A stretch of DNA of 64,000 bases, taken from an uncultured Eubacteriales bacterium. Lineage in GTDB: Bacteria > Bacillota > Clostridia > Christensenellales > Borkfalkiaceae. Shown in pieces: positions 10,192 to 30,204 of the stretch (position 1 is the stretch's first letter; each line of letters starts with the position of its first letter). The position numbers and the translations under genes are program-made. The stretch spans positions 46,288-110,287 of the forward strand of contig CAUGYD010000006.1 in the NCBI GenBank assembly GCA_959603585.1, in the 5' to 3' direction. Below the pieces are notes generated by a model. That model did not search any database, was not told the DNA's origin, and saw only the letters and a program-made list of their open reading frames with translations.

Positions 10192-10278
10192 TTTTCATTT
10201 TTACAAATCTTGTTTTCGGAGCATTTTTTCCGCTTTCGGTGTCAATTGGGGTGTCAAAAACGGTGTCATTTTTCGAGC

Positions 10279-11544: not shown

Positions 11545-11609
11545 TTTTGATAATTCTTGTCCTCCTTATAGTGAAAGCGCAAGGGGACATAATCCTTGCG
11601 CTTTTCGTT

Positions 11610-11846: not shown

Positions 11847-12044
11847 AATTACTCCGAAAATAATATTGTCGTATTAATACTATTATAGCACCTTGTAGCT
11901 ATCAAGTCAAGCATTTTTAGCAAAATTTTTTTCCGTCAGCCTTTTTCAAAGCTCCAACAGCTACTTATTTTTTCCTGTTCTTTACTTTTCTCGCGTTCCC
12001 TCTCTTCCTGCATCTCGTCCTCGATTTCTTTCAGTCGATTGGTG

Positions 12045-12094
12045 TACAGTCATATACAAGTGTCGTCAATAAAATGGTTTGGAGAAAGTTCTGA
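12045..12094 (+). repeat. Direct repeat copy 1 (50 bp, identical to the last 50 bp of the fnlC-like gene at 30054-30103)
   Basis: The sequence tacagtcatatacaagtgtcgtcaataaaatggtttggagaaagttctga is found exactly at 12045-12094 and at 30054-30103. Flanks differ on both sides. Confidence 0.9.
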
Positions 12095-12106
12095 AATAAT
12101 AAAGAA

Positions 12107-12150
12107 GAGCGTACTTAACTTCTTACGTCAAGTACGCTCTCTTATTTTAT
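12107..12150. terminator. Bidirectional intrinsic terminator
   Basis: A 10-bp perfect stem gagcgtactt / aagtacgctc (12107-12116 and 12130-12139) has T-rich runs on both sides. It lies immediately 3' of the minus-strand epimerase gene. Confidence 0.6.
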
Positions 12151-13232
12151 ACTTTATAAAATTCTTTGTACCACTCGGCAAATTTTCTTAAGCCCTTCCG
12201 CAAATTCGTTCTTGGCTTAAAACAAAAATCACGTTCTAAAGACGAAGTTTCTGCATAAGTGATAGGTACGTCGCCAGGTTGCATTGGTACAAGCTTTTTA
12301 TGCGATTCAAAATCGTAATCAGCAGGTAGAACTTTCGCATGAATAAGTTCTTGTTGTAAAATATCCACAAAATCCAACAAATTTTCGGGTTTATTATTCC
12401 CAATATTATAAATCGCATACGGAGGAACAGGTAAACCGTCTTCTCCATTTTTCTTTTCTGGAGCGCCTTGCATGACACGTTTAACACCTTCTACAATGTC
12501 GTCTATATAGGTAAAGTCGCGCTTGCAATTTCCGTAATTGAAAATTTGAATAGTTTCACCTTTCAATAACTTATTGGTAAAGTTGAAATATGCCATATCT
12601 GGACGCCCTGCGGGACCGTAGACGGTAAAGAAGCGTAAACCCGTGGAAGGAATATTATATAATTTACTGTATGCATGAGCCATTAATTCATTTGACTTTT
12701 TTGTGGCAGCATATAAAGAAATGGGATTATCGACTTTGTCATCGGTAGAATAAGGAACTTTTTTATTTGAACCGTAGACCGACGATGAAGATGCGTAAAC
12801 GAGATGTTTAATCCCAGAGGCTCCATTGACGTAAGAATAACGGCAAGCTTCTAAAATGTTATAAAAGCCAATTAAATTCGATTCAATGTACGCATCTGGA
12901 TTGCTTATAGAATAACGAACTCCCGCTTGTGCTGCAAGATTGACGACTATCTCAGGTTTGTACGTCTCAAAAATTTGTGTGATCAAGGTTTTATTTGCGA
13001 TATTTCCTTGGACAAAAATCCAAGAAGAATCCTTATGTTCAGAAGCAATTTTCTTAATCTCGTGTAATCTCCATTTTTTTAGGCAAACATCGTAATAATC
13101 GCTCATATTATCAATTCCTACGATATGAATAGAAGATTGCGAACGGAGAAGTTCTAATATAAGATTGGCACCGATAAAACCCGCTGCACCAGTGATAAAG
13201 ATAGTTCTATTTTGCAAAGTAATAGTTGTCAT
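12147..13232 (-). CDS. NAD-dependent epimerase, UDP-glucuronate 4-epimerase type (CapI/Cap1J-like)
   Basis: The Rossmann motif GAAGFIGANL is present, together with YASSSSVYG and the characteristic segment YGPAGRPDMAYFNFTNKLLKGETIQIFN. It is paired with ugd. Confidence 0.75.
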   Translation of the reverse strand: MTTITLQNRTIFITGAAGFIGANLILELLRSQSSIHIVGIDNMSDYYDVCLKKWRLHEIKKIASEHKDSSWIFVQGNIANKTLITQIFETYKPEIVVNLAAQAGVRYSISNPDAYIESNLIGFYNILEACRYSYVNGASGIKHLVYASSSSVYGSNKKVPYSTDDKVDNPISLYAATKKSNELMAHAYSKLYNIPSTGLRFFTVYGPAGRPDMAYFNFTNKLLKGETIQIFNYGNCKRDFTYIDDIVEGVKRVMQGAPEKKNGEDGLPVPPYAIYNIGNNKPENLLDFVDILQQELIHAKVLPADYDFESHKKLVPMQPGDVPITYAETSSLERDFCFKPRTNLRKGLRKFAEWYKEFYKV

Positions 13233-13241
13233 ATTTTTCCC

Positions 13242-14720
13242 TCAATCTCTTTGGAACAAGTCTCTTGTATAGACTTTTTCTTTAACATCGTCAAGGCAAG
13301 AATCAAAACGATTAGCAATAATACAGCGACTCATTTTCTTAAATTTTTTGAGATCGTTGACGATAAGGCTCCCAAAAAACGTAGTTCCGTTTTCCAAAGT
13401 CGGCTCGTAAATAATCACCGTAGCCCCTTTCGCTTTAATTCGTTTCATGACTCCTTGGATAGAGGATTGACGAAAGTTATCGGAATTACTCTTCATGGTC
13501 AGTCGGTAAACGCCGACAATGACCTCCTTTTCTTTATTTTCGTCAAAGATGCTATTCGCTTCATAAGCACCTGTAAGTTCTAGAATCCGATCAGCAATAA
13601 AATCCTTTCTCGTGTGATTACTTTCCACAATCGCTGTTATCATGTTCTGCGGTACGTCGTTGTAGTTGGCAAGAAGTTGTTTAGTATCCTTGGGTAAACA
13701 GTAACCGCCATAACCAAACGAGGGATTATTATAATGTGTCCCGATGCGTGGATCAAGGCATACGCCTGTAATGATATCTTGTGTATTTAATCCCTTAACC
13801 TCTGCATATGTATCTAGTTCATTAAAATAGGAAACTCGAAGCGCTAAATATGTATTGGCAAAAAGTTTAACAGCTTCGGCTTCAGTAAATCCCATCAATA
13901 ATATCTCTACATTCTTTTTGATAGAACCTTCTTGTAAAAGTTCAGCAAAAGTTTGAGCTGATTTTAATAGTTTTTCGTCTGATTTATCCGTGCCTACAAT
14001 AATACGTGAAGGATAAAGATTGTCATAAAGAGCCTTGCTTTCACGTAAAAATTCAGGACTGAAAATTATATTTTTCGTATTATATTTAGCTCGGATAGCT
14101 ACCGTATATCCGACAGGAATAGTCGATTTTATAACTATGATTGCGTTCGGATTAACTTTAAGAACAAGTTTAATTACTTCTTCTACTGCAGAAGTGTCAA
14201 AATAATTCTTCTTGCTATCATAATTAGTTGGCGTAGCGATAATTACGAAATCGGCATTTTTATAGGCATTTTCACCATCAAGTGTGGCTACAAGATTAAG
14301 GTTTTTATGAGAAAGATATTCTTCAATATAGTCATCTTGGATGGGGGATTTTTTTTGATTGATAAGTTCTACTTTTTTTGGAACAACATCAACTGCTGTG
14401 ACTTGATTATGTTGAGCAAGTAATATAGCTAGCGATAAACCGACATAACCTGTTCCTGCAACAGCAATGTTTACTGACGAATGAAAAGCTGTAAAGGGCA
14501 TGATAGACTCATCTCCAAACATAGCACTTGGCTCAAATCCAAGAACATCACCGAGTTTTTCAAGTTGTGGGATTAGAGGAATATAATTCCCTTGTTCTAA
14601 GCGACTAATAATTGCTCTATTGATGCCTGTAAGGATAGAAAGCTGTTGTTGAGATAAATGCTTTTCCTTTCTTAGGGAAATAACTTTTTGTGCTAGCATT
14701 TTTACATTTAGTTTTTTCAT
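13242..14720 (-). CDS. ugd: UDP-glucose 6-dehydrogenase with an in-frame N-terminal XRE-family HTH domain
   Basis: Residues about 85-492 align throughout with E. coli Ugd ([66 protein letters not shown]). Residues 1-66 form a complete HTH_XRE domain ([39 protein letters not shown]). No stop codon separates the two parts. Confidence 0.85.
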
Positions 14721-15307
14721 AACGCCTCTCTCTCTTTAAAAGATTGATACTTTAAGAAACAAATTGTGACGATTTGAAAGGTTTAATTTATAATATTATA
14801 ATATTTGTAATTATAAAAGTCAAGTGAAAAGAGGCTATTATATAAAAATATAGTGATAAAAAGCATCTCTATATGGTCAAGCATTTTTTTTGAGCAACGA
14901 CATCTGAATTTAGAAAAAGGGGATCCCAAAGTCGTATATAAATTTTTGTCGAATATTGAAATAAATACGTTAAATTGTTGCCTTATTTATAAGTTTATGC
15001 TATAATATACAAAATAGAAAAATATCTATCGTTGCGGCAGGGCATTAATATATTCGACTATCGTTTTTTGTATCCAAAAGAATTATTTGGTGAAAAAAAT
15101 TTTTAAGAAAATGATGCGTGAGACGAGACGATAACAAATTTTTAAGTTTAAAATATAAGATTGTGAATTTGTTTTGTCAATATAATAATGTTTTTATTGT
15201 AATATACAAGGTAACTTTTGAAACAATAAGATTCCGTATATGAAGTTTAGTTTGAGCATATGTCTATAAGGAATAATTTAGAATTAAGTTGGAATTTTTT
15301 AAGATAA

Positions 15308-16582
15308 ATGATTGATAAATCAAAGAGGTGCAATATCGTGTCAGAACGAAAAAGAAGGGTTTTATTTAGTCCTCCAGATATTTCAGAAGAGGAAATTAAA
15401 GAAGTTAGTGAGACGCTTCGTTCAGGGTGGATCACTACAGGTCCTAGAACAAAAAAACTTGAAAAAGAAATTGCCGCGTGGATAGGTGTCGGGCATACAG
15501 CCAAAGGTACGCCGCGATGTGTTTGTTTAAATAGTCAAACAGCTTGTGCGGAAATGGCTTTACGCATTATGGGGATCGGTCAGGGGGACGAAGTAATCGT
15601 TCCAGCTTATACTTATACCGCATCTGCTTCCGTTGTTTGTCACGTCGGGGCAAAATTGATTCTTGTCGACTCTCAGAAAAATTCTCTTGAAATGGACTAT
15701 GATAAAGTTGAAGCAGCGATTAATGAGAGAACTAAGGCAATTATACCTGTCGATATAGGAGGGATTCCTTGCGACTACGATAAAATTCTTAAAATTATAG
15801 AAAGAAAGAAAAAAATTTTTAAGCCCGTAAACAATATTCAAAAGGCACTTGGAAGAATCGCGATTATGGCGGATACCGCTCACGCGTTCGGTGCAAGACG
15901 TAAAGGCGTAATGGTTGGTAACATTGCCGATTTTTCATCGTTTAGTTTTCATGCTGTTAAAAATTTTACTACGGCAGAAGGTGGGGCTTTGACATGGAAA
16001 CATATTCAGGGAATTGAGGATGACGAAATATATCATCGACTTCAGCTTTTGAGTCTACATGGTCAATCAAAGGATGCTCTTGCTAAAACAAAATTAGGGG
16101 CGTGGGAATATGACATAATAGGTACTTGGTATAAGTGCAATATGACCGATATTGTTGCGGCAATCGGTTTGAAACAATTTGAGCGTTATCCTGGAATGTT
16201 GAAGAGGAGAAGATATATTATTGCAAAATATGATGCGGCTTTAAAACCGATCGGCGTTAACGTTTTACCACATTATACGAACGAATATGAATCTTCTGGA
16301 CATTTATATATTACAGAAATTCCAAAAATTACACACGAACAGCGTAATGAAATTATTATAAAAATGGCAGAACAGGGTATTGCTTGTAATGTTCATTATA
16401 AGCCCTTGCCTATGCATACGGCTTATAAAAATCTAGGATTTGATATTAAAGATTATCCCAATGCTTATAAGCACTATGAAAATGAAATAACACTACCACT
16501 CCATACGTGCCTGTCTGATGAAGATGTGGCGTATGTGATTAAAAAATATATGGAAATCGTAAAAGAATATGTTGATATGTAA
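15308..16582 (+). CDS. DegT/DnrJ/EryC1/StrS-family PLP-dependent sugar aminotransferase
   Basis: The overall pattern is that of the AHBA_syn/DegT fold family. It lies within the glycan locus, upstream of the initiating transferase. Confidence 0.8.
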   Translation: MIDKSKRCNIVSERKRRVLFSPPDISEEEIKEVSETLRSGWITTGPRTKKLEKEIAAWIGVGHTAKGTPRCVCLNSQTACAEMALRIMGIGQGDEVIVPAYTYTASASVVCHVGAKLILVDSQKNSLEMDYDKVEAAINERTKAIIPVDIGGIPCDYDKILKIIERKKKIFKPVNNIQKALGRIAIMADTAHAFGARRKGVMVGNIADFSSFSFHAVKNFTTAEGGALTWKHIQGIEDDEIYHRLQLLSLHGQSKDALAKTKLGAWEYDIIGTWYKCNMTDIVAAIGLKQFERYPGMLKRRRYIIAKYDAALKPIGVNVLPHYTNEYESSGHLYITEIPKITHEQRNEIIIKMAEQGIACNVHYKPLPMHTAYKNLGFDIKDYPNAYKHYENEITLPLHTCLSDEDVAYVIKKYMEIVKEYVDM

Positions 16583-17333
16583 ATGGAAAAAGCTTCCTGA
16601 AAATATGCAAACGGAAGAAATTCGTCCGTACTGGGAGAAACTTAAAAAAAGGAATTGGAATCTATTTTGGAAGAGAATTTTTGATATTATTGTTTCTCTT
16701 CTTATGCTTATTGTTTTGTCTCCGTTGTTTTTCTGTTTAGCACTAGCAATAAAAATTGATAGCAAAGGACCGATTTTTTACAGACAAGTAAGAATTACGC
16801 AATATGGAAAAGAATTTGAAATCCATAAATTTAGAAGCATGATGGTTAATGCAGACAAAGGTAGTTTGGTAACTGTTAAAGATGACATGAGGGTGACTAA
16901 GGTTGGAAAGTTTATCAGAAAATATAGACTTGACGAAATTTCACAACTCATCGATGTTTTTCAGGGGAATATGTCTTTGGTGGGAACCCGTCCCGAAGTG
17001 CCTAAATATGTTGAATCGTATAGTCCTGTGATGAGGGCTTCTCTTCTGCTTCCTGCTGGAATAACCTCCGAAGCGAGCATCCTATATAAAAATGAAGCAG
17101 AACTTCTTGATAAATCAGAAGAGGTAGATAAAGTTTATATTGAAGAGGTTCTTCCTGCTAAGATGTATTATAATCTGAAAGAAATCCCGAAAGAAGGAAT
17201 ATTTCATGATATTAAAATAATGTTTATGACTGTCTTTACTGTCTTTGGAAAAGAATACAAAGGGGATTACAAGAAAGAGGTAATTCAAAATTTTGAAAAA
17301 CAAGAAATAGGAAAGGAGTTTGTTGGTAAATGA
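16569..17333 (+). CDS. Undecaprenyl-phosphate sugar-1-phosphate transferase, small PglC/WbaP-C-terminal type (initiating glycosyltransferase)
   Basis: A single N-terminal reentrant helix is followed by the Bac_transf motifs (KGPIFYRQVRITQYGKEFEIHKFRSM, DEISQLIDVFQGNMSLVGTRPE). Confidence 0.85.
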   Translation: MLICKWKKLPENMQTEEIRPYWEKLKKRNWNLFWKRIFDIIVSLLMLIVLSPLFFCLALAIKIDSKGPIFYRQVRITQYGKEFEIHKFRSMMVNADKGSLVTVKDDMRVTKVGKFIRKYRLDEISQLIDVFQGNMSLVGTRPEVPKYVESYSPVMRASLLLPAGITSEASILYKNEAELLDKSEEVDKVYIEEVLPAKMYYNLKEIPKEGIFHDIKIMFMTVFTVFGKEYKGDYKKEVIQNFEKQEIGKEFVGK

Positions 17334-18331
17334 TGACAGTATCTTTGTGTGTTGTTGCATATAATGAAGAACAATTTCTTCCTAATCTTTTATCAGATAT
17401 TGAGAATCAAACTTATTTACATAATTTGACTGAAATTATTTTAGTCGATAGCAATTCTTCAGATAAAACTAAGGATATAATGAAAGAATTTTCTCAAAAG
17501 GCATCTTCTTTTTATAGTATTCAAGTGTTAGATAATCCTCAAAAAGTACAGGCTGCAGGTTGGAATGTTGCCATTAAACATGCTAAAAGTGATGTGATTA
17601 TTAGAATTGACGCTCATACGCACATTCCTGCTGATTTTACGGCAAAGAATATGAAATTACAAGAAAATGGTGAATATATAACTGGTGGTATTAGACCTTG
17701 CTTAATTGATAAGCCTACACCTTGGAAAGAGATGTTGCTTGAAGTAGAAAACTCAATGTTTGGAAGTAGTATAAGTAAAGGGCGCAAAAATGATAAAAAG
17801 TGTTATGTAGATTCTATGTTTCATGCAGCATACAGAAAAGAAGTCTTTGAAAAAGCAGGTGTTTTTAACCCGAAACTTTTGAGAACCGAAGATAATGAAA
17901 TGCACTATCGTATTCGAAAGGCAGGCTATAAATTATATTGTGATCCTGATATTGTTTCTTATCAATATGCACGTAGTAATTTAAAAAAGATGATAAAACA
18001 AAAATATGAAAATGGGTATTGGGTAGGGGTGACGCTCGGGGTTTGTCCTAGGTGTATATCGTTGTTTCATCTCATACCGTTAATCTTTGTCTTAGGTATT
18101 TTTTTTACAACAATATTAACACTTTTTTCAATTTGGCATTTAGCGGCATTAATGTGGGGGGCATATTTATTATTTGTAGGTGCGGGAATGATTTGTACAA
18201 TCTTGAATAAACGAGCTAATAGATGGACATTTCTTATGCCGATTGTTTTTCTTGTATTACATGTAAGTTATGGGATTGGAACTGCGGTTGGAATTTTTAA
18301 AATTCCAATTTTTAAGAAAAAATTGAATTAG
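17330..18331 (+). CDS. Family 2 glycosyltransferase with C-terminal membrane anchor
   Basis: The GT-A N-terminus (VSLCVVAYNEE, ILVDSNSSD, DAH) is followed by two C-terminal TM helices. Confidence 0.75.
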   Translation: MMTVSLCVVAYNEEQFLPNLLSDIENQTYLHNLTEIILVDSNSSDKTKDIMKEFSQKASSFYSIQVLDNPQKVQAAGWNVAIKHAKSDVIIRIDAHTHIPADFTAKNMKLQENGEYITGGIRPCLIDKPTPWKEMLLEVENSMFGSSISKGRKNDKKCYVDSMFHAAYRKEVFEKAGVFNPKLLRTEDNEMHYRIRKAGYKLYCDPDIVSYQYARSNLKKMIKQKYENGYWVGVTLGVCPRCISLFHLIPLIFVLGIFFTTILTLFSIWHLAALMWGAYLLFVGAGMICTILNKRANRWTFLMPIVFLVLHVSYGIGTAVGIFKIPIFKKKLN

Positions 18332-18343
18332 GAGAAAACAACT

Positions 18344-19420
18344 GTGGTAGGTATTATTTTTATTGGTGATTTATATGTTTGTCCATATTTACATAGATAT
18401 ACAACTATATGTGACATAAATCAAGTTGAATATGAAGTATTATTTTGGAATAGATGTGGGGAAAAATTGAATCTTCCTAAAAATTATTTGTATTTTGAAA
18501 AAACCTCAAAAGAAGAACAAAACTTTATAATTAAAAGTATAGATTTTTTTAAATATAGGAATTGGTTAAAAAGGTGCATAAAGCAAAGAAAATATGAAAA
18601 ACTGATAATACTATCTACATTAAGCGGTATAGTTCTCTTTGATTTAATATCAAAATATAAAAATAGATATATTTTTGATATCCGTGACTATAGTTATGAA
18701 CACTTAAAACTTTTTTACAAGATAGAACGAAAAATAATTAGAAATAGTTATTATACTGCTATTTCATCTCCAGGCTTTAAAAATTTTTTACCACAGAATG
18801 ACTATTTCATAATTCATAATATGCAAAGTTCCGACTTGGATCATTTGGGTCGATTTCATAAGAAACATTATGGTGAAGTTTTGAATATTGTCTGGAATGG
18901 GACCATGCGGTATTTCGAACACCAAAGAAAGATTATCAAAAAATTGGCAAACGATTCAAGATTTATAATGTATTATTATGGAGATGGACCACAACTTAAT
19001 AAATATAAACAATATATTGAAGAACATAATATAAAAAATGTGTTTTTTACAGGGAAATATAATAATTCCGAAAAATCAAAATTATTAAAAAATGCTGATA
19101 TATTGAATAACAGTTATTGGATAGAGGGTAAAGAAAAGGAAGTATTGTATGCATTATCTAATCGATATTATGATGGCCTAATATATCGTATTCCGCAACT
19201 CGTTGAGGCGAAAACGTATAAGGCTTCACTTTGCGAAATAAACGAAATTGGTATTGGTATTGCCCCCAATATAGAAAATTTTTCTGATAAACTTTACGAA
19301 TGGTATTTTAATATTAATCAGTCGAGATTTGAAGAAAACTGTCAAAAACTTTTGACGAAGGCTATTAAAGAAGACCGAGAAATGAGTGAGAAACTGACAG
19401 ATTTTTTAACCAAGGAGTAG
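18344..19420 (+). CDS. Putative GT-B fold glycosyltransferase (GT4-like C-terminal half)
   Basis: The C-terminal segment IVWNGTMRYFEHQRKII...IMYYYGDGPQLNKYKQYIEEHNIKNVFFTGKY follows the GT4 pattern. The canonical EX7E motif is weak. Confidence 0.4.
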   Translation: MVGIIFIGDLYVCPYLHRYTTICDINQVEYEVLFWNRCGEKLNLPKNYLYFEKTSKEEQNFIIKSIDFFKYRNWLKRCIKQRKYEKLIILSTLSGIVLFDLISKYKNRYIFDIRDYSYEHLKLFYKIERKIIRNSYYTAISSPGFKNFLPQNDYFIIHNMQSSDLDHLGRFHKKHYGEVLNIVWNGTMRYFEHQRKIIKKLANDSRFIMYYYGDGPQLNKYKQYIEEHNIKNVFFTGKYNNSEKSKLLKNADILNNSYWIEGKEKEVLYALSNRYYDGLIYRIPQLVEAKTYKASLCEINEIGIGIAPNIENFSDKLYEWYFNINQSRFEENCQKLLTKAIKEDREMSEKLTDFLTKE

Positions 19421-19718
19421 GTTTATGACTGTGAATAAAAATAAATTTATTAAAAAATGCTAGATATACATTATTCAGCGTTATAGTCTAAAACGTATAG
19501 AAAATGAGAAAACAGGCAGTTTTACACTTTAACTACTTTTAAAGCGTTACAATTTTTGTTTTTTGAATAAATGAAAGTGAACCGTTTAACAATACCTTGC
19601 TTTGGGTTTTGTAAAATTGGTAAAAATATGAAAATTAGAGCGAAGATAATAGTTGTTGTTAGGGGTGTTCCTAATTTTACTACGGTAAGGGCTATAGGAT
19701 AATATTAAGAGGACATAT

Positions 19719-21464: not shown

Positions 21465-21478
21465 GGTGACTTTAAAAA

Positions 21479-22696
21479 ATGGAATCGACGAACATGGTTG
21501 CAATAGTAAAAGAACACTCTTTAACGAGTAATATAGATAAGTGTAGGTTGCTGCTAATCGGGATATTGATTTTTTATATATTTTGTTTTCAGTATGTTTT
21601 TTATCCCATAAATGGTTTTCTTTCGCTTTTAGGTGTGATGTTGGCTTTTCTAGAGGTTTTGCGATTGTCACCCAAATATTATAAAAGGATTGGATATATA
21701 TGCACTTTCATAATTTTTGCTGCGCTATTTGGGTCGCTAACGGCATATGATATCAATGCTCATATAAGATTAATTGTTAATATGATGCAGTATTGTCTTC
21801 CGATGATAGCAATATGCGGATACGTGGGAAACAATGGGAAAAGATTATCCAATATTCTTCAAATAATGAGCTTTACAACTATTATACTAGCAATTTCATT
21901 AATATTTAATGGTGTAAAATTTACGGATTATGGGGCAGTGACTGTAGGAGATTTAAATACAAATGTCCTCTCTTGCTTTTTAATGATTGGTTTATTATCT
22001 CAGTTATTTTTACTTTGCGAATGTAAAAAGTCGATAATGAAAATAATTTTGTTTTGTGGAATTTTTATCGAATTAGTAGCGCAAATGCGAGCATCTTCAA
22101 GAAGAGGACTAGTAATTTTTGTTTTTTTATTGGGGGTTTATTTTTTATTGGCATATTTTATACGTTACAAAAAGAATTCTATAATGAAACTTTTTTTGGT
22201 TGTTTCAGTTATAGTTATATTTTTTATTTTTATGGCTAATTTCTATTCTTTGGCAGATAAGTATGTAATTTTGCGCCGATTATTTATGGGGGAGTTTAAT
22301 TCCGGTGATGCTTTAAGAGAGAAATATCAATCAGCTGCTTTCGAATTATTCAAAGAAGCGCCTATTTTTGGACAGGGGTTTGGATGCGTTTCGGCACGAG
22401 TTGGTATGTATAGTCATTCTATGTATTATGAAACATTGGCAAGCACGGGGGTTTTGGGAGGATTTTTATTATTTGGTTCGATTTTATCAAATATGTTCAA
22501 ATTTTTAAAAAGGGCAAAAAGTAGTAAACTCGAAGAATTAAAAATGAAATGCTATATGGGAGCGTGTGGATTTTTTGTAATATTATTATCAGGTATTGCG
22601 GTTGTCAGCATTTTTGATGCCTATTTTTATATTATGCTCGGTATATTAGGGGCGTTAGGCAATGTCGCATTCCAAAATCAAAAGGGGAATTTATGA
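21479..22696 (+). CDS. Wzy-type O-antigen/oligosaccharide polymerase (O-antigen ligase domain family membrane protein)
   Basis: The ORF predicts about 10-12 TM helices. A large loop contains the RRGLVIF segment. It lies in a Wzx-containing locus. Confidence 0.5.
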   Translation: MESTNMVAIVKEHSLTSNIDKCRLLLIGILIFYIFCFQYVFYPINGFLSLLGVMLAFLEVLRLSPKYYKRIGYICTFIIFAALFGSLTAYDINAHIRLIVNMMQYCLPMIAICGYVGNNGKRLSNILQIMSFTTIILAISLIFNGVKFTDYGAVTVGDLNTNVLSCFLMIGLLSQLFLLCECKKSIMKIILFCGIFIELVAQMRASSRRGLVIFVFLLGVYFLLAYFIRYKKNSIMKLFLVVSVIVIFFIFMANFYSLADKYVILRRLFMGEFNSGDALREKYQSAAFELFKEAPIFGQGFGCVSARVGMYSHSMYYETLASTGVLGGFLLFGSILSNMFKFLKRAKSSKLEELKMKCYMGACGFFVILLSGIAVVSIFDAYFYIMLGILGALGNVAFQNQKGNL

Positions 22697-23799
22697 AAGT
22701 ACTCTATTATTTTCTTGATTTACCTACAAATATGTTTCAATGGCAAAAATATCATATTATCGATGAACTTGCAACGCATAATATTTTTATTGACATTTTT
22801 TCTCCGTTAAAATATGCAAATATAGGACAAGCTAACGAAATGCTCCTAGAAGCTATTAATGGGTATGATATGTTTATGACCTGCCTAAATGAAACATATC
22901 TATATTTAGATACGCTACAAGAAATAAAGAAAAGAGGTATTCCTACGTTACTATTTTGTCCGGATAATTTGACCGCGCCGTTTAATCATAAAAAAATAGC
23001 ACCGTTTTTTGATTTAGTATGGCTGACTTCAATTGAAACGGAGTATTTGTTCAAACGTTGGGGAGCGAAAACGATTTTTCTTCCATATGCAGCTAACCCA
23101 AATTTGTTAAAGCCAATATCTTCGGAAAATGAGATTTTACGTGTCGGATTTGTCGGTACTCCTCACGGTAGTAGAATTGATAGAATAAATAAGTTACTCG
23201 ATGGCGGAATACCCATAACTGTACATACGTCAACAGAAAATTTTGATAATAAGCTTATAAAGGCTCCAATATTGGAGTATCTCAAAAAGTCTTCTTTATG
23301 GTTTCGTTATCCGCTTGGTCGACGACTTTTAATTGCTGCTATTCGTGATAAATTGGGCCATAGAGAGCTTATGGATAAAAAAAACTGTCTTGAAATAAAA
23401 GAACCAGTTTCTTTGGAGAAACTGTCGGAAATCAACGGAAGTTATGCATTAGTTTTGAGTTTTACAGAAGCGGATAGTACAGGGATTTTAAAACATCCTG
23501 TGCCAATTGTTAATTTACGTAATTTCGAAATTCCTATGTCGGGGGGATTACAATTTACTATGTATAGTAAAGAGATTGCAGAATATTTTGAGAATGATAA
23601 GGAGATTATTTTGGCTCGCTCTATGGAAGAATATATTGATAAAGCTAAATTTTATTTACAAGCGGAACAGACTTCTCTTAGAAAAAGAATAAGATTTGCA
23701 GCTAGAAAAAGAGCCCAAACACAACACACTTGGTATAATCGCTTTTCATGTATATTTCAGTCTCTAGGGCTGTATCAAATATTCGGAATTCAAAGGTAA
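22693..23799 (+). CDS. CgeB-family glycosyltransferase-like protein
   Basis: The C-terminal motifs (RVGFVGTPHGSRIDRINKLL, RKRAQTQHTWYNRF) resemble the CgeB/Glyco_trans_1_2 family. Assignment is weak. Confidence 0.4.
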   Translation: MKVLYYFLDLPTNMFQWQKYHIIDELATHNIFIDIFSPLKYANIGQANEMLLEAINGYDMFMTCLNETYLYLDTLQEIKKRGIPTLLFCPDNLTAPFNHKKIAPFFDLVWLTSIETEYLFKRWGAKTIFLPYAANPNLLKPISSENEILRVGFVGTPHGSRIDRINKLLDGGIPITVHTSTENFDNKLIKAPILEYLKKSSLWFRYPLGRRLLIAAIRDKLGHRELMDKKNCLEIKEPVSLEKLSEINGSYALVLSFTEADSTGILKHPVPIVNLRNFEIPMSGGLQFTMYSKEIAEYFENDKEIILARSMEEYIDKAKFYLQAEQTSLRKRIRFAARKRAQTQHTWYNRFSCIFQSLGLYQIFGIQR

Positions 23800-24073
23800 A
23801 CAGCTTTATTTTGTATTAAATTGGTGATATGCAACGAAATAATACTTTAAATAAGATATAAATTTAGTCTTTTTATTTTTTTGTAAACTATTCAACTTAA
23901 TTAATGTAAAATTTTAACCATTGTTTCAAGATAATATATTTTTTTGATAAGCACTAATTTTTTTATTTATTATAATTATATTTTGTAAAAATTTATTTTT
24001 CGAACATATTTTAAAATTTTTATAAAGAATAATTACTAAATAATGAAAAAGAATACTTTGTTAGAGGAATTGG

Positions 24074-25516
24074 ATGGGCAAAAAGAATTTGTTGCAAGGC
24101 ATAAGTTGGAGCCTTGCAGAAAAGTTATTACCTCAATTGGTAAGTTTAATTATTTCGGTTATTTTGGCTCGTTTGTTAGGACCAACAGAATATCGTGCAG
24201 TTGCAGTGGTTTTAATCTTCATAAATATCTGTGATGTTTTGGTTACAACAGGGTTTGGAATGGCGTTAATCCAAAAAAATGATGCAGATAAATTGGATTA
24301 TTCTACCATAAGTATTTTTAGTATTTCATTATCTATAGTTGTTGCGATAATTTTGTCGTCTATTTCCCCAACTATAGAAGGCTTTTTTGAAATACCTCAT
24401 TTGTCGCATTATCTTTCTGCGATGTCAATTCGAATTCCTCTCGCTGTTTTGAACTCAATTCAAAGAGCGTATTTACAAAAAAGTATGCAATTCAATAGAA
24501 TTTTTGTTGCGACATTGATAGGTACGCTTATATCAGGTATAATTGGTATAGTAATGGCACAAATAGGTTTTGGCACATGGGCTTTAATTGCACAATATTT
24601 ATCAAATTCAATTATTTCAACAATGATATTTTTATTTATAGCTAGATACCCGTTTAGCTTTCAATTTTCATGGCGCCGATTTGTTCCTATGTTTCGGTTT
24701 AGCTGGAAATTAACTTTTTCGGCTTTGTTTGCAAAGTTATATGACGAGTGTAGATCTGTAGTTATCGATAAAAAATATTCAGATAACTCTATTTCATATT
24801 ATAATAAAGGAATTCAAATACCTAATGTTGTATTGACGACTGTAAACGCTTCAATTACGACTGTTATGTTTCCTTTAATGGCAGAGATTCAAGATGAAAA
24901 AGAAAAATTAAAAAACACTTTAAGAGCTTCAATTAAACTTAGTACTTATGTGATTATGCCGATGATGATGGGGCTTATGATTGTGTCAAAGCCATTGGTA
25001 ATTCTACTTTATACGGAAACATGGGTTTCTACTATCCCATATATGCAAATTTTTGCTTTGTCGTATATTTGTACTCCAATTATAGAACTAAATCAGCGTG
25101 CGATTCAAGCGATTGGGAAAAGTGGTATTGTTATGAGGATTGAAATAATTAATAAATTGTTTGGTCTATTGACTATGTTGATTGTAATTTTATATTGTAA
25201 TTCGCCTATTTATATTGCAGGAAGTTTTGGGATATATATGTTGTTTTCATTAATTTCAAGTATGCTTGTTTATGGACGAACTATTGGATATTCTATGTTG
25301 CAACAATTAAATGATATTAAAAGTTCCTTTTTTATTAGTATTTTGATGTGTTGTACAATTTGGCCATTACATTATATAATTAATAATATGGCTCTTTTAC
25401 TTATATGCCAAATAATAGTTGGGATTTTTGTGTATATATTATTATCTAGTATTTTTAAAATACAGGAATTTAAGATACTTTATGAGCTTCTAATCAAAAT
25501 AATTAAGAAACAATAG
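24074..25516 (+). CDS. Wzx-type oligosaccharide flippase (MOP/polysaccharide biosynthesis protein family)
   Basis: The 480-aa ORF predicts about 12-14 TM helices. Its N-terminus (LLQGISWSLAEKLLPQLVSLIISVILARLLGPTEYRAVAV) is typical of RfbX/Wzx. Confidence 0.8.
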   Translation: MGKKNLLQGISWSLAEKLLPQLVSLIISVILARLLGPTEYRAVAVVLIFINICDVLVTTGFGMALIQKNDADKLDYSTISIFSISLSIVVAIILSSISPTIEGFFEIPHLSHYLSAMSIRIPLAVLNSIQRAYLQKSMQFNRIFVATLIGTLISGIIGIVMAQIGFGTWALIAQYLSNSIISTMIFLFIARYPFSFQFSWRRFVPMFRFSWKLTFSALFAKLYDECRSVVIDKKYSDNSISYYNKGIQIPNVVLTTVNASITTVMFPLMAEIQDEKEKLKNTLRASIKLSTYVIMPMMMGLMIVSKPLVILLYTETWVSTIPYMQIFALSYICTPIIELNQRAIQAIGKSGIVMRIEIINKLFGLLTMLIVILYCNSPIYIAGSFGIYMLFSLISSMLVYGRTIGYSMLQQLNDIKSSFFISILMCCTIWPLHYIINNMALLLICQIIVGIFVYILLSSIFKIQEFKILYELLIKIIKKQ

Positions 25517-25557
25517 AAAAGAATTAGATTCATCAAAAAAAGGAGAAAAAAGGGAAA

Positions 25558-26652
25558 ATGAAAACGATAATGCTTGTATTTGGAACGAGACCTGAGGCTA
25601 TTAAAATGTGTCCACTCGTAAATGAATTGAAAACTCGTAAAACTGTCCGCACTGTTGTTTGTGTAACAGGACAGCATCGTCAAATGCTTAACCAGGTGTT
25701 ACAAGTCTTTAATGTCGTTCCTAATTATGATTTATCCATCATGAAGGATAAGCAGACACTATTCGACATTACAACGAACATTCTAGCGAAAATTAAAGCA
25801 GTTTTGGAAGAAGTGAAGCCCGACGTAGTATTGGTCCATGGGGATACGTCGACAACTTTTGTCACGGCTCTTGCCTGTTATTACCTGCAGATTCCCGTTG
25901 GACACGTAGAGGCAGGACTGCGTACTTATAACATTTACAGTCCATACCCAGAAGAATTCAATCGGCAGGCGGTTGGAATTATCGCAAAATATAATTTTGC
26001 ACCCACAAGGCTTTCTGAACAAAATCTTCTACGGGAAGGGAAAGATCCGCAATCGATCTATGTTACGGGCAATACCGCGATCGACGCATTGAAAACGACA
26101 GTGCGGACTGATTATACCCATCCGGAATTAGAATGGGCAAAGGACAGTCGATTGATTATGATTACGGCACATCGTCGTGAAAATCTTGGAAAGCCGATGC
26201 ACAACATGTTTCGTGCGATTCGGCGTGTAATGGATGAGCATCCTGACATAAAGGCGCTTTATCCGATTCACATGAACCCAATCGTACGTCAGGCGGCTGA
26301 TGAAGAGTTGGGCGGCTGCGCCCAGATCCATATCATTGATCCGCTTGAGGTACTGGATTTTCATAATTTCCTTGCTCGTAGTTATCTGATTTTAACGGAC
26401 AGCGGTGGAATACAGGAAGAAGCACCGTCGCTTGGAAAGCCAGTTTTAGTTATGCGCGATACGACAGAACGCCCAGAGGGAATTAAAGCAGGAACGCTGA
26501 AACTGGTTGGAACAGATGAACAGACGATTTACGACAATTTTAAATTGCTTTTGGAAAATTCGGAAGTTTATCATAAAATGGCGCATGCGAGCAATCCATA
26601 CGGCGATGGTTTTGCCTGTAAACGAATTGCGGATATTTTGGAGGAGAAATGA
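25558..26652 (+). CDS. wecB: UDP-N-acetylglucosamine 2-epimerase (non-hydrolysing)
   Basis: The N-terminus MKTIMLVFGTRPEAIKMCPLV is present, together with HVEAGLRT and DSGGIQEEAPSLGKPVLVMRDTTERPEG. Confidence 0.9.
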   Translation: MKTIMLVFGTRPEAIKMCPLVNELKTRKTVRTVVCVTGQHRQMLNQVLQVFNVVPNYDLSIMKDKQTLFDITTNILAKIKAVLEEVKPDVVLVHGDTSTTFVTALACYYLQIPVGHVEAGLRTYNIYSPYPEEFNRQAVGIIAKYNFAPTRLSEQNLLREGKDPQSIYVTGNTAIDALKTTVRTDYTHPELEWAKDSRLIMITAHRRENLGKPMHNMFRAIRRVMDEHPDIKALYPIHMNPIVRQAADEELGGCAQIHIIDPLEVLDFHNFLARSYLILTDSGGIQEEAPSLGKPVLVMRDTTERPEGIKAGTLKLVGTDEQTIYDNFKLLLENSEVYHKMAHASNPYGDGFACKRIADILEEK

Positions 26653-27701
26653 CAATGAGCTTATTCACAAATAAGACGTTAATGATCACGGGAGGAACTG
26701 GTTCTTTCGGAAATGCGGTATTAAATCGCTTTCTGAAAACGGACATCGGAGAAATCCGAATCTTTTCCCGAGATGAAAAGAAACAAGACGATATGCGTCA
26801 CGAGTTTCAGGCGAAGATGCCAGAAGTTGCCGAGAAGATCAAATTCTATATCGGGGATGTTCGGGATATACAGTCAGTAAAAAACGCAATGCACGGAGTA
26901 GATTACATATTTCATGCGGCAGCATTGAAACAAGTGCCGTCATGTGAATTTTTTCCTGTAGAAGCGGTCAAGACGAATGTCCTCGGAACGGAGAACGTCT
27001 TGACAGCGGCGATTGATGAAGGAGTAAAGACGGTTATCTGTCTTTCCACGGATAAGGCGGCATATCCAGTAAACGCGATGGGAACGAGTAAGGCCATGAT
27101 GGAGAAGGTTATCGTAGCAAAATCCCGTACAACGCAGACGACGAAAATCTGCTGCACGAGATACGGAAACGTGATGTGTTCGAGGGGAAGCGTCATCCCG
27201 CTTTGGATAGAGCAAATCAAGAACAAGCAGCCGATAACACTTACAGAACCGAGTATGACGAGATTTATCATGTCGTTGGACGAAGCGGTGGATTTGGTAT
27301 TGTTTGCATTCGAGCATGGGACAAGCGGAGATATACTGGTACAGAAAGCGCCGGCATGTACGATTCAGACACAGGCAGAGGCAGTGTGCGAATTGTTCGG
27401 AGGAAAGAAAGAGGATATCAAAGTAATCGGAATTCGTCACGGGGAAAAGATGTATGAAACTTTGCTGACGAACGAGGAATGCGCACATGCGATAGATATG
27501 GATAAATTTTATCGTGTACCGTGCGATAAACGCGGGTTGAACTATGACAAATATTTCAAACAGGGAGATACAGAAAGAAATCCGCTTACAGAATTCAATT
27601 CGAATAATACAAAGCTTCTGGCTGTGGAAGAAGTGAAGAAAAAACTACTCACACTGAAATATATACGTGACGAGCTTGACATACAGGGAATAAAATATTA
27701 A
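26649..27701 (+). CDS. fnlA: UDP-GlcNAc 4,6-dehydratase/5-epimerase (FnlA/CapE/WbjB family)
   Basis: The N-terminus KTLMITGGTGSFGNAVLNRFL and a length of 350 aa match the FnlA family. It is followed by capF- and capG-like genes. Confidence 0.85.
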   Translation: MTMSLFTNKTLMITGGTGSFGNAVLNRFLKTDIGEIRIFSRDEKKQDDMRHEFQAKMPEVAEKIKFYIGDVRDIQSVKNAMHGVDYIFHAAALKQVPSCEFFPVEAVKTNVLGTENVLTAAIDEGVKTVICLSTDKAAYPVNAMGTSKAMMEKVIVAKSRTTQTTKICCTRYGNVMCSRGSVIPLWIEQIKNKQPITLTEPSMTRFIMSLDEAVDLVLFAFEHGTSGDILVQKAPACTIQTQAEAVCELFGGKKEDIKVIGIRHGEKMYETLLTNEECAHAIDMDKFYRVPCDKRGLNYDKYFKQGDTERNPLTEFNSNNTKLLAVEEVKKKLLTLKYIRDELDIQGIKY

Positions 27702-27710
27702 AATAAAGCG

Positions 27711-28916
27711 ATGAAAGTACTGATAACGGGAGCGAAAGGATTTGTCGGAAAGAATCTGGTAAGTGCTCTGAAAAACATAAAAGAAGGGAAAGACAAAACA
27801 CGTCTGAATCTCAGTATAGAAGAAGTATACGAATACGATTTGGATACGGACAAAGAGCTGTTGGCGGAATACTGTGAGAAAGCGGATTTCGTGTTTCATT
27901 TGGCGGGAGTAAATCGTCCGAATGATAATGCGGAATTTATGCAGGGAAATTTCGGGTTTTCTTCCGTTTTGTTGGATACGTTGAAAAAGTATAAAAACAC
28001 TTGCCCCGTAATGTTGTCGAGTTCGGTACAGGCAACACTGATCGGAAGATACGGACAGAGCGATTACGGGAAATCCAAGTTGGCGGGAGAAGAACTTTTT
28101 TTCGCGTATGCCCAAAAAACGGAATCGGAAGTATTTGTATATCGTTTTCCGAATTTATTCGGAAAATGGTGCCGACCGAACTATAACAGTGCGGTGGCGA
28201 CGTTTTGCTATAATACGGCGAATGATTTGCCTATAACGATAAATAACAGAAATACCGAATTGGAACTGGTCTATATAGACGACCTCGTGACGGAAATGCT
28301 AGATAGCTTAGAAGGAAAAGCGCATCGATGCGATTATGAGGGACTCAATCCGATACCGACTGAAACGGGAAAATATTGCTATGTGCCCGTATCGCATAAA
28401 GAGACGCTTGGGAGAATTGTCGAACTTTTGGAAACATTCCGAAATCAGCCGACTACTCTTGTAATGCCCGAGATTCCGAAGGGAAGTTTTGAGAAGAAAC
28501 TGTATTCGACGTATCTATCGTATTTGCCGAAAGAAAAGATAAGCTTCCCGTTGAAAATGAACATAGATGAACGCGGAAGTTTTACGGAACTACTCAAAAC
28601 GAAAAAATGCGGTCAGATAAGCGTGAACATAAGTAAACCCGGCATAACGAAAGGGGAACATTGGCATAACAGTAAATGGGAGTTCTTTATCGTGGTATCG
28701 GGACACGGACTGATACAAGAACGGAAAATCGGAACGGAGGAAATACTGAATTTCGAAGTATGCGGAGAGAAAATCGAAGCTGTTCATATGCTACCCGGGT
28801 ATACGCATAACATCATCAATCTGAGCAACACAGAACCGTTGATAACGGTGATGTGGGCAAATGAGACATTTGATATAAAGCATCCCGACACATTCGGAGA
28901 AAAGGTAGAAAAATGA
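27711..28916 (+). CDS. fnlB: FnlB/CapF-type bifunctional SDR reductase with C-terminal cupin (UDP-L-FucNAc pathway)
   Basis: The N-terminal SDR motif MKVLITGAKGFVGKNL is combined with a C-terminal cupin (GEHWHNSKWEFFIVVSGHG). Total length is 401 aa. Confidence 0.8.
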   Translation: MKVLITGAKGFVGKNLVSALKNIKEGKDKTRLNLSIEEVYEYDLDTDKELLAEYCEKADFVFHLAGVNRPNDNAEFMQGNFGFSSVLLDTLKKYKNTCPVMLSSSVQATLIGRYGQSDYGKSKLAGEELFFAYAQKTESEVFVYRFPNLFGKWCRPNYNSAVATFCYNTANDLPITINNRNTELELVYIDDLVTEMLDSLEGKAHRCDYEGLNPIPTETGKYCYVPVSHKETLGRIVELLETFRNQPTTLVMPEIPKGSFEKKLYSTYLSYLPKEKISFPLKMNIDERGSFTELLKTKKCGQISVNISKPGITKGEHWHNSKWEFFIVVSGHGLIQERKIGTEEILNFEVCGEKIEAVHMLPGYTHNIINLSNTEPLITVMWANETFDIKHPDTFGEKVEK

Positions 28917-30103
28917 ATACGGAAATCAAACTCGATTATAGCGATATAAAATTCAAGAATGACGGCAGATTAAAACTACTGATTATCGTAGGGACGCGTC
29001 CGGAGATTATCCGTCTTGCAGCGGTGATTACAAAATGTCGGAAGTATTTTGATTGTATTCTTGCGCATACGGGACAGAATTACGATTATACCTTAAACGG
29101 GATATTTTTTCATGACCTCAAACTCAAAGCCCCGGAAGTGTATATGGACGCGGTGGGCGAGGATTTGGGGGCGACAGTGGGGAATATCATCAACTGTTCC
29201 TATAAGCTGATGAATCAAATCTGCCCCGAGGCATTACTGATTCTCGGAGATACGAACAGCTGTCTTTCAGCAATCGCGGCGAAGAGATTGCATATCCCGA
29301 TATTTCATATGGAAGCGGGGAATCGTTGTAAAGACGAATGTTTGCCTGAAGAGACAAACCGTCGGATTGTAGATATTATTTCGGACGTGAATATGGCATA
29401 CAGCGAACACGCGAGAAGATATTTGGCGGAATGCGGTCTGCCGAAAGAGAGGACGTATGTAACGGGAAGCCCGATGGCAGAAGTATTGCATAATAATCTC
29501 GACGAGATTGAAAAAAGCAATATCCTTGAAAAACTGAATTTAGAACCGAGAAAATATATCTTGCTTTCGGCACATAGAGAGGAGAATATAGATACGGAGA
29601 AGAATTTCTTATCATTGTTCAATGCAATCAATAGATTAGCGGAGAAATACGATAAGCCGATATTATATTCCTGTCATCCGAGAAGCAAAAAACGTTTGGA
29701 CGAAAACGGATTTAAGTTGGATAAGAGAGTAATCCGCCACGAGCCTTTGGGATTTCATGATTATAATAAGTTGCAGATGAACGCATATGCGGTAGTGTCG
29801 GACAGCGGGACGTTACCGGAGGAAAGCAGTTATTTCACGAGTATAGGAAAGTCGTTTCCGGCGGTGTGTATCCGAACGAGTACGGAGAGACCGGAAGCGT
29901 TGGATAAAGGCTGTTTCATATTGGCCGGGATAGACGAGAAGTCCTTATTACAAGCAGTAGAAACGGCAGTTAGGATGAACGATGAAGGGGATTACGGAAT
30001 CCCCGTACCCGACTACACGGACGAGAATGTGTCGACAAAGGTAGTAAAACTCATACAGTCATATACAAGTGTCGTCAATAAAATGGTTTGGAGAAAGTTC
30101 TGA
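28913..30103 (+). CDS. fnlC: FnlC/CapG-type UDP-N-acetyl-L-talosamine/L-fucosamine 2-epimerase
   Basis: It belongs to the non-hydrolysing UDP-GlcNAc 2-epimerase family, with an N-terminus LLIIVGTRPEIIRLAAVI. It is the third gene of the fnlABC arrangement. Its last 50 bp are duplicated at 12045. Confidence 0.8.
   Translation: MNTEIKLDYSDIKFKNDGRLKLLIIVGTRPEIIRLAAVITKCRKYFDCILAHTGQNYDYTLNGIFFHDLKLKAPEVYMDAVGEDLGATVGNIINCSYKLMNQICPEALLILGDTNSCLSAIAAKRLHIPIFHMEAGNRCKDECLPEETNRRIVDIISDVNMAYSEHARRYLAECGLPKERTYVTGSPMAEVLHNNLDEIEKSNILEKLNLEPRKYILLSAHREENIDTEKNFLSLFNAINRLAEKYDKPILYSCHPRSKKRLDENGFKLDKRVIRHEPLGFHDYNKLQMNAYAVVSDSGTLPEESSYFTSIGKSFPAVCIRTSTERPEALDKGCFILAGIDEKSLLQAVETAVRMNDEGDYGIPVPDYTDENVSTKVVKLIQSYTSVVNKMVWRKF
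30054..30103 (+). repeat. Direct repeat copy 2 (3' terminus of fnlC including the stop codon)
   Basis: This 50-nt stretch is identical to 12045-12094. Confidence 0.9.
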
Positions 30104-30204
30104 TGGACGAAAAAATCTCAATTTTTTCACAGAAAATTCCGTGATTAGTTGAGATTTCTACCATATAAATAAAGGACTATGGAAATATAAATTTAAAAAG
30201 GAAT

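Follow-up and report, generated by a model that had tools for sequence, protein, structure and literature searches.

A perfect 50-bp direct repeat bracketing a gut bacterial glycan locus is very probably the remnant of a deletion-trimmed second gene end

An 18-kb glycan biosynthesis locus of a common human-gut bacterium lies between two identical 50-bp sequences, and we find that the upstream one is very probably a relic of a second fnlB–fnlC end, trimmed by deletion, and not a recombination site. In the 64-kb stretch of DNA that was analysed (the window), TACAGTCATATACAAGTGTCGTCAATAAAATGGTTTGGAGAAAGTTCTGA occurs at 12045–12094 and again at 30054–30103, with 100% identity and a spacing of 18,009 bp. 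No other exact repeat in the window exceeds 32 nt, and the chance expectation of this pair was estimated as ~2e9 position pairs × 4^-50, or roughly 1e-21. The bases adjoining the two copies differ on the left and on the right, so the exact repeat with abrupt ends described in the original prediction was recovered in full. The downstream copy is the 3′ end, stop codon included, of a gene for a 396-amino-acid non-hydrolysing UDP-GlcNAc 2-epimerase (Pfam Epimerase_2; NCBIfam wecB above cut-off), here called fnlC. The upstream copy had been described as an orphan tail with no reading frame behind it, and indeed no open reading frame (ORF) of at least 20 amino acids ends there in a check of the window ORFs. 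Its first two bases (TA) are the microhomology of a deletion joint, leaving 48 nt of unambiguous fnlC origin; the 50-bp stub has no demonstrable function. The features to which we refer are as follows.

10065–10140, plus strand: tRNA-Thr (CGT), left landmark of the variable region (ARAGORN)
10279–11544, minus strand: tyrosine integrase int1, 421 aa (Pfam Phage_integrase and SAM-like domains; phrog_1)
11610–11846, minus strand: 78-aa ORF of an integrative element, conserved, with no family match
11936–12046, minus strand: 3′ remnant of the element's 364-aa gene, 36 codons plus stop (identity with L002)
12045–12094, plus strand: orphan fnlC tail, 2 nt of TA junction microhomology and 48 nt of the fnlC 3′ end with its TGA
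12095–12146, minus strand: intrinsic terminator of the convergent epimerase gene (terminator scan; 15-bp stem at 12105–12141, T-tail at 12095–12104)
12147–14857, minus strand: block Q, a 361-aa SDR epimerase, a 492-aa HTH-fused UDP-glucose 6-dehydrogenase (Ugd) and their upstream region (Pfam, NCBIfam)
14858–14927, no strand: joint segment J, 70 bp, linking block Q to the promoter region of the plus-strand operon (homology limits)
14928–30103, plus strand: block P, from the promoter region through the fnlA/B/C-like genes (domain searches; homology with L129)
28696–30103, plus strand: 3′ fnlB and fnlC, 1,408 bp, the segment that occurs twice in the type B relative (100% identical to L002:9784–11191)
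30054–30103, plus strand: resident 50-mer copy, the functional 3′ end of fnlC with its TGA
30104–30121, plus strand: native 3′ flank of fnlC, TGGACGAAAAAATCTCAA (comparison with L022 and L021)

Domain searches confirmed that a complete Wzx/Wzy-type locus lies between the copies. Block P starts with a promoter region (TTGCCT-17-TATAAT at 14978–15006) and encodes DegT, an initiating transferase, glycosyltransferases, a frameshifted acetyltransferase, Wzy, Wzx, a WecB-type epimerase and the fnlA/B/C-like products, at 90–94% identity to L129 where the two can be aligned. The fnlC product passed the wecB model (TIGR00236, 218 bits against a cut-off of 210), while the best NCBIfam scores of the set otherwise were 509 bits for FnlA (TIGR04130, cut-off 730) and 348 bits for a WbcJ-type reductase (NF047837, cut-off 500). 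Gene order and domain architectures fit a putative UDP-L-FucNAc pathway set (FnlA/FnlB/FnlC, CapE/F/G-type). No transposase ORFs or long repeats flanking the unit were found in the window. The predicted setting of the upstream copy stood as regards an integrase on its left and a terminator on its right; the 'RHH' label given to the neighbouring 78-aa ORF did not, having zero matches in Pfam, PHROGs and NCBIfam. The exact 78-aa protein is present on 119 contigs.

The origin of the stub is recorded in a near-identical relative, a human-gut contig that we term type B (ERZ28508963 NODE_3), which encodes the exact FnlC protein twice. There the repeat comprises 1,408 bp (3′ fnlB and all of fnlC), again 18,009 bp apart; its two copies differ at 0 positions, and the identity extends by not one base on either side. 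The contig equals window 7841–12046, followed by 6,937 extra bp and then by the window from 12045 onward, with 1 mismatch in 23.6 kb. What the window arrangement (type C) lacks is most of the 364-aa gene, the DUF6291 gene, the 841-aa gene, a fragment of the recombinase gene int2 and 1,358 bp of the fnlBC copy. The joint combines GATTGGTG-TA-GTCTCT and AAACTCA-TA-CAGTCAT into GATTGGTG-TA-CAGTCAT, with 2 bp of TA microhomology, and since the 6,937-bp loss was joined at this TA, the 50-mer begins on the left at a deletion endpoint and not at a recombinase core. On the left of the joint, the 364-aa gene is broken off: window 11900–12044 equals L002:4060–4204 at 100%, inside the 364-aa gene at L002:4096–5190, and the protein tail ...DYTNRLKEIEDEMQ...FEKG* agrees between the window remnant and L002.

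In type B the left copy is itself joined to an incomplete recombinase gene, next to which lies a complete small integrative element. Here int2 (...GGAGTAATA/ATAAG) and fnlB (...CGTGGTA/TCGGG) are joined as GGAGTAATATCGGG, and int2 is intact, at 312 aa, in other strains. State B is known from one metagenomic contig, the int2::fnlB fusion protein being found on that 1 contig only, and, as the 1,408-bp repeat exceeds short-read length, its block order hangs on how the assembler resolved that repeat. Assembly chimaerism cannot account for the int2::fnlB joint or for the one between fnlC (>50 nt) and the terminator, as each involves no more than 2 shared bp. A strain with two full-length copies was absent among the contigs examined, a state that short-read assemblies would collapse.

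The right edge of the stub has a counterpart in a related lineage. In three samples (L125, L126 and L130), 90–96% identical to the window, a full fnlABC is followed by its stop codon, AATAATAAAG, the terminator and the epimerase gene (order P–Q). The 50-mer carries 2 SNPs in this lineage and the terminator stem a compensatory change. The succession of fnlC stop, terminator and convergent epimerase is thus a native gene junction. We considered whether the P–Q contig might be a collapsed duplication and found no support, as its 211-bp right tail recurs nowhere. Block Q is 95.6% identical to L125, homology with the P–Q lineage stopping at 14857, and block P homology with L129 begins at 14928; segment J, in between, has no match outside type B and type C contigs and is probably the novel joint created by the rearrangement. 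Among the contigs found, identical Ugd or epimerase alleles were confined to types B and C, with no ancestor carrying them in another context. The two genes of block Q form a pair that is widely conserved in Bacillota genomes: a genome-contig scan with the epimerase returned 80 loci, all in other species at ≤88% identity, which showed only how widespread the ugd–epimerase pair is; nucleotide similarity ends at the epimerase stop codon. The species representative genome is without this glycan cassette.

The resident copy has a different right flank. TGGACGAAAAAATCTCAA is common to other serotype lineages and missing 3′ of the orphan copy; L022 matches all 18 nt of this flank with 1 mismatch, and L021 matches TGGACGA.

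The 90-nt junction formed by the upstream 50-mer and 20 nt on either side is base-identical in seven distinct contigs from different samples and assemblers. State C is therefore inherited and, because stub and flanks agree to the base in seven independent assemblies, goes back to a single event. An assembly artefact, through collapse or misjoining of a repeat, has practically no likelihood: contigs L111 and L116 do stop at or near the repeat, but 50 bp is below typical read length and the junction was recovered by SPAdes, MEGAHIT and scaffolded pipelines alike.

On the basis of these comparisons, we propose the following history. The ancestor would have carried the fnl gene end twice in direct orientation, flanking the epimerase/Ugd block, with the left-hand copy immediately upstream of the convergent epimerase terminator, an arrangement that is still intact in the related lineage. 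This left copy would then have been destroyed by two illegitimate deletions, both sealed at 2 bp of TA microhomology. The first would have run from about codon 140 of int2 into fnlB, leaving 1,408 bp (state B); the second would have taken out 6,937 bp between a point within the 364-aa gene and one 50 bp short of the fnlC stop, leaving the stub (state C). On the left the repeat would thus stop at the endpoint of the second deletion, and on the right where fnlC itself naturally ends and meets the terminator. The direction from B to C is suggested by parsimony, and the left copy is likewise presumed to have been full length at one time. The comparison with related strains that the original prediction called for thus revealed both the 1,408-bp form and the native fnlC–terminator junction. 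Of its proposals, deletion within an earlier duplication fits the last step, given the 1,408 bp in a near-identical strain and the 6,937-bp microhomology deletion, but a plain tandem duplication as the starting point is less likely.

Such a duplication is disfavoured as sole origin of the two-copy state because the right copy ends as fnlC/TGGACGA, native to other cassettes and not to block Q. We favour a homologous crossover within the fnl genes. Somewhat improbable in its particulars, though worth setting out, is a Campbell-like relocation in which a circularised or sister-chromosome cassette of order P–Q recombined via fnlABC into a chromosome with fnlABC beside hipBA; this would account for the left copy keeping fnlC/terminator and the right copy fnlC/TGGACGA. 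A crossover of this kind, which is a live option, would have needed kilobase-scale fnl homology and not the 50 bp. The identity of the copies is no proof of intragenomic duplication, since the P allele is 100% identical among strains that differ in their right flank.

Constancy of the P allele also bears on whether the stub is what remained of an older, different fnlC allele after serotype cassette replacement, which we consider unlikely. The region from tRNA-Thr to the HIGH_NTase1 gene is hypervariable and holds many unrelated glycan cassettes, several of them ending in fnlABC; mosaic SNP patches in fnlC indicate recombination between alleles, and the P allele circulates unchanged between strains. 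Against this, the type B relic is identical to the resident copy at 1,408 of 1,408 positions, whereas alleles of other serotype lineages in the species have 91–97 mismatches (~93% identity in fnlBC), and the right flank of the relic is the native partner of the same gene set in the P–Q lineage. The proposal of a relic of the previous allele is disfavoured accordingly. Far less probable still is that the 50-mer is the attL/attR core of a site-specific element carrying the 18-kb glycan locus, inserted into the fnlC 3′ end by the neighbouring integrase. The likeness to tyrosine-integrase islands is real, with identical direct repeats around an 18-kb low-GC segment and an integrase beside a tRNA nearby. 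But the repeat length is inconstant (50 bp here, 1,408 bp in near-identical type B), the left edge is a deletion joint, the right edge is a native gene–terminator junction elsewhere, and int1 precedes the left repeat instead of lying within the bracketed DNA. The integrase is the remainder of a separate small integrative element beside tRNA-Thr, intact in other strains (int1, 78-aa, 364-aa, DUF6291 and 841-aa genes), and an identical int1 protein adjoins tRNA-Thr in all related contigs examined. A tRNA-derived att repeat for int1 was also sought: a k-mer scan of 10060–10285 gave no repeat of at least 13 nt elsewhere except a local hairpin, the window holds no second copy of the tRNA-Thr 3′ end, and the tRNA-Thr 3′ region is not repeated over at least 13 nt in related loci either. 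Neither a plasmid nor a phage match of the 18-kb unit was found; a plasmid search with the unit gave no match and a phage search with the integrative element essentially none. The att-core proposal thus gained no support.

The relic could, rarely, support RecA-mediated loss of the locus. Less than 50 bp of perfect direct homology suffices for RecA-dependent exchange in E. coli, and loss of surface glycans is often advantageous under phage pressure. That the stub is retained as a switch, with recombination between the 50-mers deleting or amplifying the glycan locus at a useful rate, is nevertheless very improbable, if slightly less so than an att core. The locus-loss junction was found in 0 of 135 fetched loci, all assembled contigs, and was absent from the 23–24 longest contigs per flanking-gene lookup; these loci and the collection scans also lacked an empty site with a single copy and a circle junction. 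In JGI metagenomes, a collection that barely samples this organism, the junction of fnlC (>50 nt) with the terminator, which is both the type B and the circle junction, had 0 matches, and the 50-mer had 1 uninformative match, an adapter-ended 2.4-kb contig; IMG/VR gave 0 matches for the 50-mer and 0 for the int2::fnlB joint. Chance deletion endpoints, moreover, account for the stub boundaries. Excision through the 50-bp homology, as originally predicted, is possible in principle, but neither a locus-loss nor a circle junction was found, and the search with the 50-mer and its flanks in other genomes returned the same stub in seven contigs and no empty-site or circle arrangement.

Remnants of this kind have parallels. 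Cassette exchange at the cps/rfb loci of Enterobacteriaceae and Streptococcus pneumoniae leaves partial genes at the borders of O-antigen and capsule clusters. Similarly, a conserved sugar-nucleotide block, here fnlABC, ends a hypervariable, low-GC, serotype-specific block, and orphan fragments of flanking genes record past rearrangements. Here, however, the fragment is identical to the resident allele and not a diverged older one, and its trimming can be traced via an intermediate in a near-identical strain. In the cap-b locus of Haemophilus influenzae, a tandem capsule locus, a 1.2-kb deletion truncates bexA and IS1016 in one copy (PMC6535587). As there, a glycan or capsule locus is associated with direct repeats of which one copy is deletion-truncated, a relative has a longer form (1,408 bp in type B, 50 bp in type C), truncation is the state commonly inherited, and the leftover direct homology could in principle drive copy-number change or loss (PMC6535587). 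In contrast to cap-b, no IS element flanks the window unit and the joints are 2-bp microhomologies; the second copy is reduced to its last 1.4 kb and then to 50 bp, and here neither amplification nor any change in glycan production is in evidence.

Related strains carry an inverton, a promoter-bearing segment between inverted repeats of 23–24 nt placed 146 nt apart, which is found in both orientations next to a recombinase gene: L019, L119 and L120 have it opposite to L017 and L118, and L118 and L119 encode an identical int2 protein. The inverted-repeat motif is absent from the window. Other strains have the recombinase gene, the invertible promoter and a helicase gene at the head of the glycan locus; the deletions took all three away, and the glycan locus of the window lineage is now behind a fixed promoter.

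The stub is an ordinary genome scar, and the fixed promoter may matter more to the bacterium than the repeat does. The case also carries a caution, in that a perfect direct repeat around a low-GC island near an integrase resembles an att pair and is here the chance product of two deletions. If the relocation outlined above is correct, single crossovers within a common 3′ gene block would relocate whole glycan cassettes in this gut species, with rare excision still permitted by the residual 50 bp. The three-state series of native P–Q order, 1,408-bp relic and 50-bp relic is a clean natural record of how illegitimate deletion at microhomologies reshapes the hypervariable region for surface glycans in a common human-gut bacterium.

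The exact direct repeat TACAGTCATATACAAGTGTCGTCAATAAAATGGTTTGGAGAAAGTTCTGA (50 nt; the 50-mer) occurs as an orphan at 12045-12094 and as the 3' end of fnlC at 30054-30103. Its copies are 100% identical, lie 18,009 bp apart and have different flanking bases on both sides. They form the sole long exact repeat in the 64-kb window, and a chance match of the 50-mer in 64 kb is estimated at ~1e-21. The original prediction, that the repeat brackets the whole glycan locus, described the repeat and its surroundings accurately, apart from an RHH label on the 78-aa ORF, which has no family match. GC content is 29-37% across 12-26 kb, compared with 42-45% in fnlABC.

Features around the two copies of the 50-mer (window coordinates, strand, feature)
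10065-10140, plus strand: tRNA-Thr(CGT)
10279-11544, minus strand: tyrosine integrase, int1
11610-11846, minus strand: 78-aa ORF, no family match
12045-12094, plus strand: orphan 50-mer
12105-12141, minus strand: terminator with a 15-bp stem
12147-13232, minus strand: SDR epimerase
13242-14720, minus strand: HTH-fused UDP-glucose dehydrogenase
15308-30103, plus strand: operon encoding a DegT aminotransferase, an initiating sugar transferase, glycosyltransferases, Wzy, Wzx, a WecB-type epimerase and three fnlA/B/C-like genes
30948-32328, plus strand: hipBA
33188-35680, plus strand: TOTE-type primase-helicase

In the UDP-glucose 6-dehydrogenase (13242-14720), the N-terminal Cro/C1-type HTH domain spans residues 15-64; the fusion and the adjacent epimerase form a two-gene pair conserved across many Bacillota genomes.

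Using an exact FnlC protein lookup in public assemblies, we identified a near-identical relative (type B), a single human-gut contig (ERZ28508963 NODE_3) that encodes this exact protein twice. The left part of type B carries, all on the minus strand, int1, the 78-aa gene, a 364-aa gene, a DUF6291 gene and an 841-aa gene. These are followed by a 213-aa fusion ORF, in which the N-terminal part of another tyrosine recombinase (int2) runs into the FnlB C-terminus, by a complete fnlC, and by the terminator and epimerase known from the window. Alignment revealed that type B consists of window 7841-12046, 6,937 extra bp and window 12045 onward, with 1 mismatch in 23.6 kb of shared sequence. Window 28696-30103 (1,408 bp) is present twice in type B, exactly and 18,009 bp apart, and the match stops dead at both ends, with not one base more. 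The window arrangement (type C) is type B minus 6,937 bp; with the 1,408-bp second copy retained in type B, this bears out, for the last step, the earlier suggestion of a deletion within a pre-existing duplication.

The type C joint reads GATTGGTG-TA-CAGTCAT, with the dinucleotide TA at both parental sites. The left endpoint of the deletion falls inside the 364-aa gene, of which the last 36 codons remain (11936-12046), while the right endpoint sits 50 bp upstream of the fnlC stop. Deletion from B to C is the parsimonious direction, because an insertion in the reverse direction would have to restore the element and fnlBC exactly, each without a break. At least 7 distinct contigs, from different samples and assemblers, share the 90-nt type C junction base for base, which rules out an assembly artefact; the junction is one inherited event.

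Type B itself bears the mark of a prior deletion. Other strains of the species have an intact int2 (312 aa), followed by a ~980-aa helicase gene and then a variable glycan locus. The type B int2 breaks off after ~codon 140 and is fused to fnlB at a 2-bp TA microhomology (parents GGAGTAATA/ATAAG and CGTGGTA/TCGGG, giving GGAGTAATATCGGG). Two other contigs (L117:6761-6928 and that of protein P0005) have int2 independently cut elsewhere, after ~codon 44; two different sequences follow the shared residues ...GEDN, a point that could be a recurrent breakage or insertion hot spot. Illegitimate deletions are evidently common around this boundary.

In related strains (L019:19157-19350, L017:19158-19349, L118:10939-11230 and L119:10939-11230), an invertible promoter lies between the gene of the 312-aa recombinase int2 and the helicase gene (~980 aa) at the head of the glycan locus. 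Both orientations are seen, even between contigs encoding identical int2 protein. Its near-palindromic inverted repeats of 23-24 nt, CCACCTATTATCATAATAGG and CCGCCTATTATGATAATAGG, are 146 nt apart, and the segment contains TTGCCT-17-TATAAT and a terminator hairpin. The window lineage has lost int2, the inverted repeats and the helicase gene and has kept a fixed promoter core (~14975-15011) upstream of DegT.

The 841-aa element protein deleted from the window (L002:6696-9221 of type B, minus strand) is a 'yonO B. subtilis homolog' according to one source; YonO itself is an RNA polymerase of the single-subunit type, encoded by a prophage. The 841-aa protein matches phrog_8308, has no Pfam or NCBIfam match, and shares 37-41% identity with proteins of uncultured human-faecal phages and ~23% with an Enterocloster phage ORF whose annotation is RNA-dependent RNA polymerase.

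At the right edge of the orphan, the fnlC stop abuts AATAATAAAG, the T-tail of the epimerase terminator. We rejected this join as a novel duplication joint, the same join being native in a lineage represented by three samples (L125/L129, L126 and L130; the P-Q lineage) and 90-96% identical to the window. On single contigs, its order is DegT ... Wzy ... Wzx-WecB-fnlA-fnlB-fnlC, then terminator, convergent epimerase and ugd, with TGA/AATAATAAAG present downstream of full-length fnl genes. Its 50-mer differs by two SNPs and its terminator stem by a compensatory pair of changes. The P-Q junction and the type B comparison therefore account for both orphan edges. Judged from these alignments, the orphan is bounded on the right by a native gene end and on the left by a deletion endpoint.

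In the two-copy state, the left copy runs into the terminator, as in the P-Q lineage, and the resident right copy into TGGACGA..., the native fnlC flank in two other cassette types of the species (L021 and L022). Had a P-Q unit simply been duplicated in tandem, block Q (convergent epimerase and ugd) would follow the right copy, and it does not. Both junctions would arise with no further steps under the favoured origin, a homologous crossover within the fnl genes. Either by Campbell-like integration or by unequal exchange, it would have united the P-Q arrangement with an fnlABC-hipBA arrangement. Homology to block Q stops at 14857 and homology to block P, the glycan operon, starts at 14928; the intervening 70 bp have no match outside types B and C and are probably the site of the novel joint. 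An origin of the stub from an older, diverged allele, also raised in the original prediction, is less likely, because the 1,408-bp copies match each other perfectly, against 91-97 differing sites in the species' other fnlBC alleles. Identity alone is no proof of an intragenomic origin, since the P allele is also identical among strains with different right-hand flanks.

An att core had been proposed as well. An att pair is defined by a repeat of constant length, a recombinase within the element and the occurrence of an empty site, and the 50-mer pair shows none of the three: its length varies, int1 lies outside the bracketed DNA and no empty site was found. None of the 135 loci retrieved, nor any of the 23-24 longest contigs examined per flanking gene, contained the locus-loss junction (GGTG, 50-mer, TGGACG), and a search for a tRNA-derived repeat for int1 found none. 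In assembled, indexed data, the circle/type B junction had 0 matches in JGI metagenomes, the 50-mer had one uninformative match there and none in IMG/VR, the 18-kb unit had no plasmid match and the integrative element had essentially no phage match.

The closest described case is the Haemophilus influenzae cap-b duplication-deletion variant, a tandem capsule locus commonly with a 1.2-kb deletion truncating one copy (PMC6535587). In contrast, the present case involves no IS elements, retains just a stub of the second copy and has no sign of amplification. The orphan 50-mer is real and amounts to an ordinary scar in the genome.

In this human-gut species, the surrounding region, from tRNA-Thr/int1 to the 120-aa/HIGH_NTase1 genes (window ~10150-36630 and loci L021-L030), forms a hypervariable island. 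Glycan cassettes and defence or toxin-antitoxin content differ among ten contigs that share an identical HIGH_NTase1 protein; the latter content includes hipBA, TOTE variants of 815-912 aa, an HNH/AAA system, a DUF2357-containing system, KilA-N and IS fragments. The window has ~100 bp at 30122-30219, with the conserved TGGACGAAAAAATCTCAA on one side and the terminator AAAGCCGTACTC... on the other, that are missing in the otherwise collinear L022; this stretch holds a 9-bp inverted repeat (AAATCTCAA and TTGAGATTT) and may be a small insertion. Within the glycan operon, the hexapeptide-repeat acetyltransferase gene (20866-21464) is broken into a pair of overlapping ORFs, one of 82 or 75 aa and one of 121 aa, which are 96-97% identical to the two halves of the intact 192-aa P-Q-lineage protein. 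This points to a frameshift, present in every type B and type C contig, with a possible effect on glycan acetylation.
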